In this document: positions 127 to 11,629 of the stretch, one piece after another | Layout: each line of letters opens with the position of its first letter | Numbering within the stretch: position 1 is the first letter of the stretch | Virus record (IMG/VR): IMGVR_UViG_2700989507_000026 | Length of the DNA stretch: 11,629 bases | Origin: a virus | Lineage: Duplodnaviria; Heunggongvirae; Uroviricota; Caudoviricetes | Direction: 5' to 3' (one strand) | The notes under the pieces: generated by a model | Told to the model about the DNA's origin: nothing | The model's input: only the letters and a program-made list of their open reading frames with translations | Databases searched by the model: none | Program-made: the position numbers and the translations under genes

Positions 127-631
127 GGTCAGAGGATTCGCCAGAATTCTCTGACGAATAATCTTTTCTATTTTCTTTTGTATTAGTGTCTTTTGTGTTC
201 CCCTGTTTTGAGGGATAGCAATCCCCCAATTTGAGGGATGTTTTATCCCTCGTTTTAGGGGATTTTCCCTCGTTTTGAGGGATACACCATTCTGAGATGT
301 TTTTATTTGGTCCAAACATGCCGCCTTGCTGCTTGATAATATTCATTCTGACGAGTTCTAACTTGGCTTCATTGCACCGTTTGACAGGTAACTTTGTAAT
401 CTCGCTAAGTTGAGAATCGGTGATTCTGTCCATTGGTTTATTCCACCCATAGGTTTTACGCAGAATGGCAAGCAGCACTTTAAACTGTCGCTTGGTCAGA
501 TCTGCGCCTGAATAAGCCTCAAGCAGCATATTTGATAGTCTGGCGTAACCATCATCGAGATCTGCCACATTACGCTCCTGTCCGGCAAAGTTACCTCTGC
601 CGAAGTTGAGTATTTTTGCTGTATTTGTCAT
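98..631 (-). CDS. O: Replication initiator O, C-terminally truncated by the IS insertion (about 168 native codons fused to 9 IS-derived codons LNRPGNPGD)
   Basis: N-terminus MTNTAKILNFGRGNFAGQERNVADLDDGYARL... is lambda O; ori iterons lie inside the ORF; reading frame runs into the IS inverted repeat and stops at 98; lambda O is about 299 aa. Confidence 0.85.
   Translation of the reverse strand: MTNTAKILNFGRGNFAGQERNVADLDDGYARLSNMLLEAYSGADLTKRQFKVLLAILRKTYGWNKPMDRITDSQLSEITKLPVKRCNEAKLELVRMNIIKQQGGMFGPNKNISEWCIPQNEGKSPKTRDKTSLKLGDCYPSKQGNTKDTNTKENRKDYSSENSGESSDLNRPGNPGD
199..284. repeat. ori-lambda iterons: four direct repeats of about 18-19 bp (O-binding sites), followed at 130-198 by the AT-rich unwinding region
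   Basis: Four copies of the tCCCTCnnnTTGAGGGAt-type motif at about 199-216, 221-239, 245-263 and 267-284, inside the O coding region. Confidence 0.9.
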
Positions 632-2781: not shown

Positions 2782-3105
2782 ATGGATGCACAAACACGCC
2801 GCCGCGAACGTCGCGCAGAGAAACAGGCTCAATGGAAAGCAGCAAATCCCCTGTTGGTTGGGGTAAGCGCTAAACCAGTTAACCGCCCTATTCTCTCGCT
2901 GAATCGCAAACCGAAATCACGAGTAGAAAGCGCACTGAATCCGATAGACCTTACGGTGCTGGCTGAATACCACGAACAGATTGAAAGCAACCTGCAACGT
3001 ATTGAGCGCAAGAATCATCGAGTTTGGTATAGCAAGCCAGGTGAGTTCGGTATAACTTGTCAAGGAAGACAAAAGGTTAAAGGGGAATCCATTCCATTGG
3101 CATGA
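2782..3105 (+). CDS. N: Antitermination protein N (107 aa), lambda-like with several substitutions
   Basis: MDAQTRRRERRAEKQAQWKAANPLLVGVSAKPVNRPILSLNRKPKSRVESALNPIDLTVLAEYH...; RBS GGAGA at 2771-2775; track ORF 2650-3105 is an upstream extension through nutL. Confidence 0.92.
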   Translation: MDAQTRRRERRAEKQAQWKAANPLLVGVSAKPVNRPILSLNRKPKSRVESALNPIDLTVLAEYHEQIESNLQRIERKNHRVWYSKPGEFGITCQGRQKVKGESIPLA

Positions 3106-3113
3106 GGTACGTA

Positions 3114-3983
3114 ATGAAGAAGATTGATTACAAGTCCATACCAAAACCAATAGACTCAGCATCAGAGCGAAAAAAACACAAAAAAGAGGCTGAAAAATTA
3201 GCAAATTATATCAGTTTTATTAGAAACAATGCTCACGGCGATGGCGACAAGAAGTTGCTTTCAGATGCTCGGACCCAAGCGTTCGGTATACTTCGTAAGC
3301 AGATGCAATATCGTCTTCATCCTGGCTACATAATTGAAATTCGCCCTACTGAAAGACAATTGTTCTTATTAAACTCTGTCTTTGACTTTGTAAACGTAGT
3401 TGGAGATCTTATCGACAGGTCTGTAGATAAGGATCCTGATACAAATAGTTTTCTTCTAACAAATAAAGAATACTTATATGGTAAATTCGGTATAAACGGA
3501 TGGCAAAAATATGTACGCTTCTTACGTGCATTCGTTGATGCGTATAAAAATTCCGACATGATTTATACATATTTGCCTGGTGGTGATAATTGTACGCTTT
3601 CGGCAGACAATAGAATATTCATACCTGTACTTGGTCTTGGGCTGATTAATGCAGTAAATGAAAAAGATGTTATAATTGTTAAGCAGTGGCGAAAATATGA
3701 GGGATATAGATATCTGCCATGCTTTGATATATTAAAAATACAGAATAAATTCTATGTAAAAATTAAATATAAAGAAGATATTTTCTTCCTCAGAAAAAAC
3801 AAAGATCTTTTACAAGAACTTTCTGGTACAATAGATGTCATCTTAGGTTCTAGGTTTATAAAAGAACTGAAAGAAAGCAGGTCTTTCTCTCGTGTAGAGA
3901 TAAGCGAGTCAGAGTTATGGGGTATATCAAATAATCCTGTAAACCACGCTCACCAACGAAACCCAAACAAAAAGTGGTCATAA
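3114..3983 (+). CDS. Hypothetical protein (289 aa), AT-rich accessory gene in the N-ea10 interval where lambda carries ral/orf28/sieB; candidate exclusion or abortive-infection function
   Basis: Long ORF with SD GAGG 5 nt upstream of ATG 3114 (alternative ATG at 3102 overlaps the N stop); clearly lower GC than neighbours; no recognisable family or catalytic motif. Confidence 0.65.
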   Translation: MKKIDYKSIPKPIDSASERKKHKKEAEKLANYISFIRNNAHGDGDKKLLSDARTQAFGILRKQMQYRLHPGYIIEIRPTERQLFLLNSVFDFVNVVGDLIDRSVDKDPDTNSFLLTNKEYLYGKFGINGWQKYVRFLRAFVDAYKNSDMIYTYLPGGDNCTLSADNRIFIPVLGLGLINAVNEKDVIIVKQWRKYEGYRYLPCFDILKIQNKFYVKIKYKEDIFFLRKNKDLLQELSGTIDVILGSRFIKELKESRSFSRVEISESELWGISNNPVNHAHQRNPNKKWS

Positions 3984-4540: not shown

Positions 4541-4612
4541 GCGCGGCGTTACCGCATACCAATTACGCTTCACTCGAGGCGTTTTTCGTTATGTATAAAT
4601 AAGGAGCACACC

Positions 4613-4777
4613 ATGCAATATGCCATTGCAGGGTGGCCTGTTGCTGGCTGCCCTTCCGAATCTTTACTTGAACGAATCACCCGTAAATTACGTGACGGAT
4701 GGAAACGCCTTATCGACATACTTAATCAGCCAGGAGTCCCAAAAAATGGATCAAACAATTATGGCTATCCAGACTAA
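4613..4777 (+). CDS. cIII: CIII (54 aa; FtsH inhibitor that stabilises CII)
   Basis: [54 protein letters not shown]; RBS AAGGAG at 4601-4606; below the ORF-track length cutoff, found by hand. Confidence 0.92.
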   Translation: MQYAIAGWPVAGCPSESLLERITRKLRDGWKRLIDILNQPGVPKNGSNNYGYPD

Positions 4778-4889
4778 ATTCACTATCGCCACTTTTATTG
4801 GCGATGAAAAGATGTTTCGTGAGGCCGTCGACGCTTATAAAAAATGGATATTAATACTGAAACTGAGATCAAGCAAAAGCATTCACTAA
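4746..4889 (+). CDS. kil: Kil (47 aa; host cell-division inhibitor)
   Basis: [47 protein letters not shown] matches lambda Kil; start overlaps the cIII 3' end. Confidence 0.9.
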
Positions 4890-5259
4890 CCCCCTTTCCT
4901 GTTTTCCTAATCAGCCCGGCATTTCGCGGGCGATATTTTCACAGCTATTTCAGGAGTTCGGCCATGAACGCTTATTACATTCAGGATCGTCTTGAGGCTC
5001 AGAGCTGGGCGCGTCACTACCAGCAGATAGCCCGTGAAGAGAAAGAGGCAGAACTGGCAGACGACATGGAAAAAGGCCTGCCCCACACCTGTTTGAATCG
5101 CTATGCATCGGTCATTTGCAACGCCACGGGGCCAGCAAAAAAGCCATTACCCGTGCGTTTGATGACGATGTTGAGTTTCAGGAGCGCATGGCAGAACACA
5201 TCCGGTACATGGTTGAAACCATTGCTCACCATCAGGTTGATATTGATTCAGAGGTATAA
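4844..5259 (+). pseudogene. gam: gam (RecBCD inhibitor) with a single-base frameshift near 5085; the canonical C-terminus is in the +1 frame
   Basis: Frame 1 gives [80 protein letters not shown] then diverges and runs through the bet start; the +1 frame from about 5086 reads [57 protein letters not shown] and ends at 5259, six nt before bet. Confidence 0.8.
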
Positions 5260-5264
5260 AACGG

Positions 5265-6050
5265 ATGAGTACAGCACTCGCAACGCTGGCAGGGAAGCTG
5301 GCTGAACGTGTCGGCATGGATTCTGTCGACCCACAGGAACTGATCACCACTCTTCGCCAGACGGCATTTAAAGGCGATGCCAGCGATGCGCAGTTCATCG
5401 CATTGTTGATCGTCGCCAACCAGTACGGCCTTAATCCGTGGACGAAAGAAATTTACGCCTTCCCTGATAAGCAGAACGGCATCGTTCCGGTGGTGGGCGT
5501 TGATGGCTGGTCCCGCATCATCAATGAAAACCAGCAGTTTGATGGCATGGACTTTGAGCAGGACAATGAATCCTGTACATGCCGGATTTACCGCAAGGAC
5601 CGTAATCATCCGATCTGCGTTACCGAATGGATGGATGAATGCCGCCGCGAACCATTCAAAACCCGCGAAGGCAGAGAAATCACGGGGCCGTGGCAGTCGC
5701 ATCCTAAACGGATGTTACGGCATAAAGCCATGATTCAGTGTGCCCGTCTGGCCTTCGGATTTGCTGGTATCTATGACAAGGATGAAGCCGAGCGCATTGT
5801 CGAAAATACTGCATACACTGCAGAACGCCAGCCGGAACGCGACATCACTCCGGTTAACGATGAAACCATGCAGGAGATTAACACTCTGCTAATCGCCCTG
5901 GATAAAACATGGGATGACGACTTATTGCCGCTCTGTTCCCAGATATTTCGCCGCGACATTCGCGCATCGTCAGAACTGACACAGGCCGAAGCAGTGAAAG
6001 CTCTTGGATTCCTGAAACAGAAAGCCACTGAGCAGAAGGTGGCAGCATGA
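5265..6050 (+). CDS. bet: Bet (Red-beta single-strand annealing recombinase, 261 aa)
   Basis: [68 protein letters not shown]... matches lambda Bet. Confidence 0.95.
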
Positions 6051-6727
6051 CACCGGACATTATCCTGCAGCGTACCGGGATCGACGTGAGAGCTGTCGAA
6101 CAGGGGGATGATGCATGGCACAAATTACGGCTCGGCGTCATCACCGCTTCAGAAGTTCACAACGTGATAGCAAAGCCCCGCTCAGGAAAGAAGTGGCCTG
6201 ACATGAAAATGTCCTACTTCCACACCCTGCTGGCTGAGGTTTGCACCGGTGTGGCTCCGGAAGTTAATGCTAAGGCGCTGGCCTGGGGAAAACAGTACGA
6301 GAACGACGCCAGAACCCTGTTTGAATTCACTTCCGGCGTGAATGTTACTGAATCCCCGATCATCTATCGCGACGAAAGTATGCGCACCGCCTGCTCTCCC
6401 GATGGTTTATGCAGTGACGGCAACGGCCTTGAGCTGAAATGCCCGTTTACCTCCCGGGATTTCATGAAGTTCAGGCTCGGTGGTTTCGAGGCCATAAAGT
6501 CGGCTTACATGGCCCAGGTGCAGTACAGCATGTGGGTGACGCGAAAAGATGCCTGGTACTTTGCCAACTATGACCCGCGTATGAAGCGTGAAGGCCTGCA
6601 TTATGTCGTGGTTGAGCGGGATGAAAAGTACATGGCGGGTTTTGACGAGATGGTGCCGGAGTTCATCGAAAAAATGGACGAGGCACTGGCTGAAATTGGT
6701 TTTGTATTTGGGGAGCAATGGCGATGA
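6047..6727 (+). CDS. exo: Exo (Red-alpha 5'-3' exonuclease, 226 aa)
   Basis: [68 protein letters not shown]... matches lambda Exo; start overlaps the bet stop. Confidence 0.95.
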
Positions 6728-7382: not shown

Positions 7383-7406
7383 AGGGAGCTACAGGCTCCT
7401 TTTTTA
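7383..7406 (+). terminator. Intrinsic terminator (tL-type)
   Basis: AGGGAGC-tacag-GCTCC hairpin followed by TTTTTT at 7400-7405. Confidence 0.6.
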
Positions 7407-8905: not shown

Positions 8906-8920
8906 TGGCGGCTTTTTCTT
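8895..8920 (+). terminator. Intrinsic terminator just upstream of pI/xis
   Basis: AAGCCGCC-tgat-GGCGGCTT hairpin followed by TTTCTT. Confidence 0.7.
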
Positions 8921-8944: not shown

Positions 8945-9163
8945 ATGTACTTGACACTTCAGGAGTGGAACGCACGCCAGCGACGCCCAAGAAGCCTTGA
9001 AACAGTTCGTCGATGGGTGCGCGAATGCAGGATATTCCCTCCTCCGGTTAAGGATGGAAGAGAGTATCTGTTCCACGAATCAGCGGTAAAGGTTGACTTA
9101 AATCGACCAGTAACAGGTAGCCTTTTGAAGAGGATCAGAAATGGGAAGAAGGCGAAGTCATGA
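8945..9163 (+). CDS. xis: Excisionase Xis (72 aa)
   Basis: MYLTLQEWNARQRRPRSLETVRRWVRECRIFPPPVKDGREYLFHESAVKVDLNRPVTGSLLKRIRNGKKAKS matches lambda Xis. Confidence 0.95.
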   Translation: MYLTLQEWNARQRRPRSLETVRRWVRECRIFPPPVKDGREYLFHESAVKVDLNRPVTGSLLKRIRNGKKAKS

Positions 9164-10211
9164 GCGCCGGGATTTACCCCCTAACCTTTATATAAGAAAC
9201 AATGGATATTACTGCTACAGGGACCCAAGGACGGGTAAAGAGTTTGGTTTAGGCCGAGACAGGAGGATAGCAATCACTGAAGCAATACAGGCCAATATTG
9301 AGTTATTTTCAGGACACAAACACAAGCCTCTGACAGCGAGAATCAACAGTGATAATTCTGTTACGTTACATTCATGGCTTGATCGCTACGAAAAAATCCT
9401 CGCCAGCAGAGGAATCAAGCAGAAGACACTCATAAATTACATGAGCAAAATTAAAGCAATAAGGAGGGGGCTGCCTGATGCTCCACTTGAAGACATCACC
9501 ACAAAAGAAATTGCGGCAATGCTCAATGGATACATAGACGAGGGCAAGGCGGCGTCAGCCAAGTTAATCAGATCAACACTGAGCGATGCATTCCGAGAGG
9601 CAATAGCTGAAGGCCATATAACAACAAACCCGGTCGCTGCCACTCGCGCAGCAAAATCAGAGGTAAGGAGATCAAGACTTACGGCTGACGAATACCTGAA
9701 AATTTATCAAGCAGCAGAATCATCACCATGTTGGCTCAGACTTGCAATGGAACTGGCTGTTGTTACCGGGCAGCGAGTTGGTGATTTATGCGAAATGAAG
9801 TGGTCTGATATCGTAGATGGATATCTTTATGTCGAACAAAGCAAAACAGGCGTAAAAATTGCCATCCCTACAACATTGCATGTTGATGCTCTCGGGATAT
9901 CAATGAAGGAAACACTTGATAAATGCAAAGAGATTCTTGGCGGAGAAACCATAATTGCATCTACTCGTCGTGAACCGCTTTCATCCGGCACAGTATCAAG
10001 GTATTTTATGCGCGCACGAAAAGCATCAGGTCTTTCCTTCGAAGGGGATCCGCCTACCTTTCACGAGTTGCGCAGTTTGTCTGCAAGACTCTATGAGAAG
10101 CAGATAAGCGATAAGTTTGCTCAACATCTTCTCGGGCATAAGTCGGACACCATGGCATCACAGTATCGTGATGACAGAGGCAGGGAGTGGGACAAAATTG
10201 AAATCAAATAA
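9141..10211 (+). CDS. int: Integrase Int (356 aa, tyrosine recombinase)
   Basis: MGRRRSHERRDLPPNLYIRNNGYYCYRDPRTGKEFGLGRDRRIAITEAIQANIELFSGH... matches lambda Int, including the C-terminal catalytic Tyr region (ASQYRDDRG); overlaps the xis 3' end as in lambda. Confidence 0.96.
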   Translation: MGRRRSHERRDLPPNLYIRNNGYYCYRDPRTGKEFGLGRDRRIAITEAIQANIELFSGHKHKPLTARINSDNSVTLHSWLDRYEKILASRGIKQKTLINYMSKIKAIRRGLPDAPLEDITTKEIAAMLNGYIDEGKAASAKLIRSTLSDAFREAIAEGHITTNPVAATRAAKSEVRRSRLTADEYLKIYQAAESSPCWLRLAMELAVVTGQRVGDLCEMKWSDIVDGYLYVEQSKTGVKIAIPTTLHVDALGISMKETLDKCKEILGGETIIASTRREPLSSGTVSRYFMRARKASGLSFEGDPPTFHELRSLSARLYEKQISDKFAQHLLGHKSDTMASQYRDDRGREWDKIEIK

Positions 10212-10299
10212 TGATTTTATTTTGACTGATAGTGACCTGTTCGTTGCAACAAATTGATAAGCAATGCTTTTTTATAATGCCAACTTAGTATAAAAAAGC
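10212..10299. other. attL: phage P' arm (Int arm-type and IHF sites) plus the 15-bp common core at 10285-10299, joined to bacterial attB sequence
   Basis: Reverse complement of the lambda P' arm (CAATTTGTTGCAACGAACAGGTCACTATCAGTCAAAATAAAATCATTATT) followed by core TTAGTATAAAAAAGC (reverse complement of GCTTTTTTATACTAA) and then AGG..., matching the bacterial arm of attB. Confidence 0.9.
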
Positions 10300-10345: not shown

Positions 10346-11629
10346 GTGAACACATTTTCAGTTTCCCGTCTGGCGCTGGCATTGGCTTTTGGCGTGACGC
10401 TGACCGCCTGTAGCTCAACACCACCCGATCAACGTCCTTCTGATCAAACTGCGCCTGGTACCTCTTCTCGCCCGATTCTGTCGGCAAAAGAAGCGCAGAA
10501 TTTCGATGCGCAACACTATTTTGCATCCCTGACACCAGGTGCTGCAGCGTGGAATCCGTCCCCGATAACCCTGCCTGCGCAACCTGACTTTGTTGTCGGC
10601 CCGGCGGGTACTCAAGGTGTAACGCATACCACGATTCAGGCGGCGGTAGATGCGGCAATTATCAAGCGTACCAACAAGCGCCAGTATATTGCCGTGATGC
10701 CTGGTGAGTATCAGGGAACGGTGTATGTCCCTGCTGCTCCAGGTGGAATTACTCTGTACGGTACAGGTGAAAAACCGATTGATGTGAAGATTGGGCTTTC
10801 CCTTGATGGGGGCATGAGCCCTGCCGACTGGCGTCACGACGTCAACCCGCGCGGCAAATATATGCCAGGTAAACCAGCGTGGTATATGTACGATAGCTGC
10901 CAGAGCAAACGCAGCGACAGTATCGGTGTTCTCTGTTCTGCGGTCTTCTGGTCACAAAACAATGGCCTGCAACTGCAAAATCTGACCATCGAAAACACGC
11001 TGGGCGATAGCGTAGATGCAGGTAACCATCCGGCGGTGGCACTGCGTACTGACGGTGACCAGGTACAGATTAACAACGTTAACATTCTCGGTCGTCAGAA
11101 CACCTTCTTTGTCACCAACAGCGGTGTGCAGAACCGTCTGGAAACGAATCGTCAGCCGCGTACGCTGGTGACCAACAGCTACATTGAAGGGGATGTGGAT
11201 ATCGTTTCTGGTCGCGGCGCAGTGGTGTTCGATAACACCGAATTCCGCGTGGTGAACTCACGTACTCAGCAAGAAGCGTATGTGTTTGCACCGGCTACGC
11301 TGTCCAACATTTACTACGGTTTCCTCGCCGTAAACAGCCGTTTCAATGCTTCCGGTGATGGCGTGGCACAAATGGGCCGCTCGCTGGATGTTGATGCCAA
11401 TACCAACGGTCAGGTGGTGATCCGTGATAGCGCCATCAACGAAGGTTTTAACACGGCTAAACCATGGGCCGATGCGGTGATCTCTAATCGTCCGTTTGCG
11501 GGTAATACCGGCAGCGTTGACGATAGCGACGAAATACAGCGCAATCTGAATGACACTAACTACAACCGCATGTGGGAATACAATAACCGCGGCGTGGGTA
11601 GCAAAGTGGTTGCAGAGGCGAAGAAGTAA
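10346..11629 (+). CDS. ybhC: Host outer-membrane lipoprotein YbhC (pectinesterase-family fold, 427 aa), the chromosomal gene flanking attB
   Basis: MNTFSVSRLALALAFGVTLTACSS (lipoprotein signal with lipobox LTAC), complete ORF ending at the window edge; known to neighbour the lambda attachment site in E. coli. Confidence 0.9.
   Translation: MNTFSVSRLALALAFGVTLTACSSTPPDQRPSDQTAPGTSSRPILSAKEAQNFDAQHYFASLTPGAAAWNPSPITLPAQPDFVVGPAGTQGVTHTTIQAAVDAAIIKRTNKRQYIAVMPGEYQGTVYVPAAPGGITLYGTGEKPIDVKIGLSLDGGMSPADWRHDVNPRGKYMPGKPAWYMYDSCQSKRSDSIGVLCSAVFWSQNNGLQLQNLTIENTLGDSVDAGNHPAVALRTDGDQVQINNVNILGRQNTFFVTNSGVQNRLETNRQPRTLVTNSYIEGDVDIVSGRGAVVFDNTEFRVVNSRTQQEAYVFAPATLSNIYYGFLAVNSRFNASGDGVAQMGRSLDVDANTNGQVVIRDSAINEGFNTAKPWADAVISNRPFAGNTGSVDDSDEIQRNLNDTNYNRMWEYNNRGVGSKVVAEAKK

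Follow-up and report, generated by a model that had tools for sequence, protein, structure and literature searches.

In the lambda gam-minus mutants known from the genetics of Spi and Chi, RecBCD remains active and degrades the tails of rolling circles, and growth of the phage depends on recombination. The protein that these mutants are missing is known in structural detail: in its complex with RecBCD, the Gam dimer blocks the RecB arm that binds duplex DNA and inserts one of its long N-terminal helices into the 3' single-strand channel, filling it (PMC5218532). The solved structures 2UUZ and 5MBV span all 98 Gam residues. In the gam-minus state RecBCD is active against linear and rolling-circle DNA (PMC12315714), and a comparable situation exists in nature, in that 43 of 246 lambdoid phages with recombination modules are without any anti-RecBCD gene (PMC12315714). 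The phages that naturally do without such a gene may be adapted to RecBCD, for example by the possession of many Chi sites.

The gene described here is most closely related to the gam genes of phage 434 (OL657226, where it is annotated 'RecBCD inhibitor') and lambda (J02459), with which it shares a place in the left operon, flanked by kil and bet, and a match of both halves of the protein to the Gam family of Pfam. It resides in a stretch of 11,629 nucleotides from a virus of the Caudoviricetes (IMG/VR record IMGVR_UViG_2700989507_000026), which as a whole is called the window in this report and from whose first letter all positions are counted unless another sequence is named. Compared with the genes of 434 and lambda, the gam of the window is without one G, such that residues 42-98 are out of frame and no full-length Gam is expected from normal translation. 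In our estimation it is very probable that a genuine, vertically inherited one-base deletion inactivates gam in a prophage of 434 immunity that is resident beside ybhC in an Escherichia coli lineage of the O145:H28 type.

Three known situations invite comparison with this locus. The predicted genotype of the window, Exo+ Bet+ Gam-, is that of the classical lambda red+ gam- mutants, with the difference that the allele is a natural one and belongs to a resident prophage that is also replication-defective, through an insertion sequence (IS) in gene O. Like the recombination modules that naturally have no anti-RecBCD gene, the window combines an annealase and a nuclease with no inhibitor of RecBCD; in those modules, however, the gene is wholly absent, whereas in the window a recently intact gene has been broken by one base. 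The defective prophages of enterohaemorrhagic E. coli contain frameshifted pseudogenes, which the gam of the window resembles as a single-base lesion amid IS insertions and small deletions.

The Prophage and its Left Operon

The prophage of the window is lambdoid with phage 434 immunity, and over 8.8 kb it is separated from a 434 isolate by 9 substitutions and 2 indels of a single base. Its left-operon genes cIII, kil, gam, bet and exo occupy positions 4613-6727 on the + strand, and the Red module has the lambda gene order, kil-gam-bet-exo. Both of the recombination genes that follow gam are full length. The bet gene (Red-beta; 5265-6050, + strand) encodes a protein of 261 aa that is identical to lambda Bet at 260 of the 261 positions and matches Pfam RecT, and exo (Red-alpha; 6047-6727, + strand) encodes 226 aa, 222 of which are identical to lambda Exo, with a match to Pfam YqaJ. 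The statement in the preliminary description of this DNA that bet and exo are intact is therefore upheld. Farther along the + strand are xis and int with the att core at 10285-10299 (the whole spanning 8945-10299), assigned from the annotation of an identical locus in E. coli RM12761 and from phage 434. The att core is followed by the chromosomal gene ybhC (10346-11629), and the prophage ends at the lambda attachment site. At the opposite border of the window, the end of an IS3-family (IS629-like) element at 1-126, which is 100% identical to an IS end of RM12761 (an IS3 family transposase according to PGAP), interrupts replication gene O. What is left of O is an IS-cut N-terminal remnant at 127-631 on the - strand that matches O of phage 434.

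The closest complete genomes are those of the E. coli O145:H28 strains RM12761 and RM13516, which are food and patient isolates from the 2007 ice-cream outbreak in Belgium and whose loci are identical to each other. Both strains are counted in the lineage of the prophage and in sequence type ST6130 (PMC7067040 for RM13516), and Prophage 01 of RM13516, located between ybhC and ybhB, carries espJ, nleG, nleH and cif (PMC3893438, supplement). Gene O is cut by the IS in the window and in both of these strains, with 275 bp more of O kept in the window (127-401). Aside from these 275 bp beside the IS, the window departs from RM12761 and RM13516 by one substitution, at 7389; the two differences together rule out the idea that the window is simply the locus of these strains. 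The 275-bp difference suggests either that an IS-adjacent deletion occurred later in RM12761 and RM13516 or that the insertion point was another one.

Several other features of this region can be recorded. The IS transposase protein of RM12761 is encoded elsewhere in that genome as well, and a fragment in the same genome bears the annotation of an IS3-like element (IS629 family). Between N and ea10 the window has an ORF of 289-293 aa (3102-3983), which has no Pfam hit in the precomputed table of the assembly collection and is annotated as 'Nun C-terminal peptide-containing protein' in the record for phage 434. The only Rfam family detected in the window is Lambda_thermo, the cIII thermoregulator (4600-4658; 88.5 bits). 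Upstream of xis, ~430 bp of phage 434, including the 114-codon hypothetical ORF CPT_434_33, are missing from the window (window 8908-8917 as against L005 10076-10506), and at this junction the two alignments overlap by 10 bases.

The Missing Base and the Reading Frames of gam

Alignment of positions 4844-5270 with phage 434, lambda and the prophage of an O55:H7 strain places the lesion between 5085 and 5086 of the + strand, where the G of a CAG codon has been lost. The missing G is the sole difference between the window and phage 434 over the 427 aligned bases (~99.8% identity). At the deletion site the window reads CCCCA-CACC (CCCCACACC), and phage 434, lambda and the O55:H7 prophage all read CCCCAGCACC. 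There is no homopolymer run at the lesion, the lost G being a single base preceded by A and followed by C. Since the comparison was made base by base with near-identical homologues, chance is no issue for this deletion. The broken codon corresponds to Q41 of the 98-residue form of Gam (GamS) and to Q81 of the 138-residue form (GamL); in the numbering of the latter, the codon for P80 is at 5081-5083 and the residues H82-V138 are the 57 that follow. The preliminary description had reported a single-base frameshift in gam, a division of the protein into 80 and 57 residues with a switch of frame near 5085, and a G in lambda (CAG CAC) that the window does not have. On all of these points the alignment agrees with it to the base.

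The remains of the gene can be delimited as a pseudogene at 4964-5259 on the + strand, which corresponds to the 98-codon GamS but measures 296 bp, one base too few, or in other words the gam of phage 434 minus one G. The upstream frame holds codons 1-40 of the 98-codon gene (equivalent to codons 1-80 of the 138-codon annotation of lambda), and its start is either ATG 4844, as in the 138-codon annotation, or ATG 4964, as in the current annotation of the 98-codon gene; the last 57 codons lie elsewhere. Read from ATG 4964, the actual ORF (4964-5305, + strand) specifies 113 aa, namely 40 correct residues (MNAYY...DDMEKGLP) and 73 that are out of frame, and it ends within bet at TGA 5303-5305, having spanned the ribosome-binding site and the start codon of that gene. 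The stranded C-terminal part (5086-5259, + strand) retains the 57 codons for GamS residues H42-V98 (HLFESL...VDIDSEV) together with the original stop at 5257-5259, in a frame that is open since 5038. Pfam Gam (PF06064) is split, with profile positions 1-48 matched in the upstream frame and 42-98 in that of the stranded part (E = 5.6e-35 for the latter). By both DNA alignment and Pfam, then, homology to the Gam family is present over both halves of the gene, whereas an uninterrupted frame of ~98 codons, joining the N-terminal helix to the C-terminal dimer core, is absent from the gam of the window and breaks at codon 41.

The existence of two annotated starts raises the matter of which of them defines the gene. 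The GamL leader, a 40-codon upstream extension at 4844-4963 (+ strand), is open in the window and overlaps the end of kil. Among 109 related contigs of IMG/VR, the 138-codon frame is open in 21 and the 98-codon frame is intact in 106; in a wider count, among the matches listed, the 98-aa frame is intact in 111 of 114 contigs. Judging from these frames, the conserved gene is the 98-codon GamS, and the 40-codon extension of GamL is not conserved. As for the form in which the frameshift product is recorded, a 153-aa product initiated at ATG 4844 was considered and rejected, as it has no exact match in the protein collection, in which only the 113-aa form occurs.

The leader has peculiarities of its own. 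A terminator-like hairpin is situated within it at 4914-4931, and in the O55:H7 strains RM12579 and 2013C-4465 it is broken by a change from C5 to C4, with the 98-codon gam intact (L002 3001-3120). These two strains had been candidates for carriers of the same deletion, their matches being also 421 bases long, and were discarded because the base that they have lost is a C of the C5 run in the leader.

Carriers of the Deletion

Of 5426 complete E. coli genomes, 2152 contain this stretch according to a 71-base query around the deletion site, and 2 of the 2152 have the deletion, namely RM12761 and RM13516, which carry the identical allele. A mutant 39-mer had no exact match in IMG/VR, the JGI metagenomes or the GTDB species representatives, and the wild-type 40-mer has at least 120 matches in IMG/VR. 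By these counts the deletion is a private allele of one lineage and not a conserved arrangement. For the identical sequence in both strains, RefSeq/PGAP gives 'host-nuclease inhibitor Gam family protein, frameshifted', so that the lesion is already known in the sense that RefSeq flags the gene as a pseudogene.

A public assembly collection, which takes in Logan assemblies made from SRA runs, has the 113-aa frameshift product in exact form on 35 contigs in 43 blocks. Five loci, drawn from Logan SRA assemblies and two NCBI drafts among others, were read in detail and represent five structural contexts. Of the 24 contigs that were read, 14 group with a contig of SRR29061450 in which gene O is intact; in other carriers of the gam deletion an IS interrupts O, in some of them next to a further deletion. 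Between about 420 and 11629 the carriers are identical to the window, or nearly so. Such near-identity in spite of the varied contexts fits a single event that was inherited by a diversifying clone, and most of the carriers do look like one clone.

The individual contexts have some features that set them apart. The SRR29061450 contig, with its intact O, has 8 substitutions that are clustered in 170-419. A contig of SRR29499145 has the same gam deletion and in addition a 13-bp deletion in exo, at the equivalent of window positions 6565-6577, by which exo is split into ORFs of 174 aa and 48 aa, a further step in the decay of the Red module. The draft GCA_000752635.1 (CCVQ01000154.1) shares this left arm and its gam deletion, with 4 substitutions in cIII/kil; beyond a recombination junction near window position 2962 it has another module for immunity and replication, which encodes a lambda-type Cro, a 237-aa repressor, a protein with a BstA_C domain and a DnaB-type helicase. 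A second and different gam frameshift product, P0002, of 114 aa, falls into the same 90% cluster and comes from one NCBI contig of 5.08 Mb. It derives from a lambda-type gam allele in which the frame is lost right after MEK at an A5 run (…MEKRPAPSTCLNRY…), and is either an independent lesion or the outcome of homopolymer sequencing errors.

Alternative Explanations

The preliminary description had allowed that the frameshift might be a sequencing error, in which case the strains would in truth have an intact 98-codon gam; we give this explanation almost no chance. It draws on the facts that single-base indels are the commonest of assembly errors, that the earliest carrier genomes (2014) relied on 454 and early PacBio chemistry, and that the original GenBank annotation named the 113-aa ORF simply 'putative Gam'. 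However, the genomes of RM13516 and RM12761 are separate de novo assemblies, each of them built from 454, Illumina and PacBio data, with ~60 million Illumina reads apiece, or ~60 million read pairs in the case of RM13516 (PMC3893438; PMC4032123), and the deletion is common to both. It is also present in the window's own genome, a structurally different variant, and on the 35 contigs in all, among whose examined loci are later SRA runs assembled by Logan and two NCBI drafts other than these genomes; and the missing base, a lone G between A and C, is outside any run. The signature of an artefact, such as restriction to one assembly or platform or an association with a homopolymer, is thus absent over 35 contigs, five contexts and three platforms. 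On the basis of the agreement between independent assemblies, which can stand in for read pile-ups when a single-base indel is to be judged, we take the deletion to be real and inherited. It seems just as improbable that a useful amount of functional Gam is restored during expression, through -1 ribosomal slippage or reinitiation. Restoration of the frame needs a -1 shift between 5038, from where the C-terminal frame is open, and 5086, and there is indeed an in-frame A_AAA tetramer, at 5071-5074 and 12 bases ahead of the deletion; slippage by -1 at this tetramer would generate a 98-aa protein in which GLPQ to RPAP is the sole change from the wild type. Yet this weak tetramer is the only slippery element upstream of the frame change, where no heptamer of the form X_XXZ_ZZN was found, and tetramers that have no stimulator downstream shift at ~0.15%, where the background is 0.11%; among the six tetramers with a clear response to a stimulator, A_AA.A is the weakest (PMC4066793). 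The RNA of 5060-5160 folds no better than shuffled sequence (z = 0.12) and has no Rfam match. The motif is present in every wild-type gam and so did not evolve for frame rescue, and, with 2 carriers among 2152 genomes, the deletion does not mark a conserved site of recoding. With regard to reinitiation, the C-terminal part has a single in-frame start, TTG 5116, upstream of which no Shine-Dalgarno sequence was seen. The check for programmed frameshifting that had been proposed in the preliminary description was negative, and with no heptamer, no stimulatory structure and no conservation found, a programmed frameshift at gam is most improbable.

Given that the deletion is genuine, its loss of gam might have been selected instead of neutral, in that it could spare the lysogen the inhibition of RecBCD, with the slow growth and quinolone sensitivity that this brings, or could avoid setting off a defence that senses the inhibition of RecBCD, such as Old of phage P2. 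We consider selection unlikely, if somewhat less so than the explanations of the preceding paragraph. The costs on which it would act are documented: Gam alone causes a slight growth defect and Gam together with P2 Old lowers viable counts 100,000-fold, lambda without Gam escapes Old (PMC12445682), and Gam lowers the ciprofloxacin MIC about fourfold (PMC5218532). A P2-like prophage is present in RM13516, and the occurrence of the gam lesion in the SRR29061450 contig together with an intact O fits a gam lesion that predates the IS insertion in O. Against selection, the hotspot of the P2-like prophage in RM13516 is occupied by Lamassu (LmuA, LmuB and LmuC) and not by Old, and what is listed for this strain as a 'retron-type reverse transcriptase' is in all likelihood the maturase of a group II intron, which was found close to where it was expected, its correspondence to the old locus tag having been estimated. 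The deletion is furthermore a single mutational event in one clone, with no recurrence that would point to selection, and in related contigs lesions of gam are no more frequent than those of bet or exo: among the matches listed of IMG/VR contigs with the wild-type site, broken copies number 3 of 114 for gam, 6 of 102 for bet and 5 of 94 for exo (~3-6%). There is a slim prospect that the loss was an adaptive disarming of one prophage through conflict with another element, be it because Gam is costly or because of a defence that monitors RecBCD or free DNA ends, for example the Lamassu of the co-resident P2-like prophage. If this adaptive reading were true, the locus would be a small example of prophage conflict that shapes a recombination module.

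Two candidates in RM13516, the hotspot of the P2-like prophage and the 'retron-type' reverse transcriptase, were checked as possible guards of RecBCD, and no support for such a role was found for either. The P2-like prophage lies between yegQ and yegR; ISEc8 interrupts its integrase gene, and its lysozyme gene carries a frameshift. The hotspot is between the portal gene and replication gene A, and in P2 itself we would expect the same hotspot to carry old and tin. The Lamassu genes LmuA, LmuC and LmuB, recognized by PADLOC (E = 1e-98 for LmuB), occupy 2,650,890-2,654,299 of the RM13516 genome (L132 25891-29300), where all three are annotated solely as hypothetical proteins. In the search for the 'retron-type reverse transcriptase', the first 50-kb stretch of RM13516 to be searched contained nothing relevant, and the next one contained a group II intron reverse transcriptase/maturase (ltrA) within an IS629-family element at ~1,509,866-1,513,349 (L134 39867-43350). 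This maturase is probably the protein that was tabled as a 'retron-type reverse transcriptase' in the original paper on RM13516.

Predicted Consequences for the Red Module

An inherited one-base deletion, which is the explanation that we favour, would have the following effects. Translation from the gam start would produce the first 40 residues, containing the long N-terminal helix, and 73 unrelated residues, with the loss of residues 42-98, among them the globular part by which Gam, in the solved complex with RecBCD, forms its dimer and obstructs the site for duplex DNA on RecB. Of the Gam part of the 113-aa product, an AlphaFold model from the single sequence keeps just helix 3-36, which low-confidence sequence follows; with a mean pLDDT of 59 the confidence is low, and the model, which was run without an alignment, is usable solely for the retention of the N-terminal helix. 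From the description of 5MBV and this model, we infer that the mutant product should not inhibit RecBCD and that the allele is null or nearly null, although the fragment with the helix could retain weak binding to RecB.

When the left operon is turned on, Exo and Bet would be made and linear DNA would be left without protection from RecBCD, which is the classical lambda gam-minus state. The suggestion in the preliminary description that the prophage encodes Red-beta and Red-alpha without the RecBCD inhibitor is in this sense supported, the deletion and the intactness of bet and exo having been confirmed and the loss of Gam function being predicted from structural considerations. A further effect may fall on bet itself. 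Ribosomes in the shifted frame would run 41 bases past the bet start (ATG 5265), over its ribosome-binding site, which in phage 434 is annotated just upstream of bet, and might disturb the initiation of bet translation.

Implications

The gam lesion would be one step in the ordinary decay of a prophage, and the finding has little importance beyond the correct annotation of the gene. For databases, it means that the 113-aa GenBank entries AHG13428.1 and AHY63769.1, each named 'putative Gam', are frameshift products and not a variant of Gam. The gam deletion allele, being limited to 2 of the 2152 complete genomes that have the stretch, can serve as a clean marker of its lineage. The prophage, which in RM13516 is the carrier of espJ, nleG, nleH and cif, is to be recorded as gam-minus, and its gam is a genuine, ordinary pseudogene in a decaying prophage.
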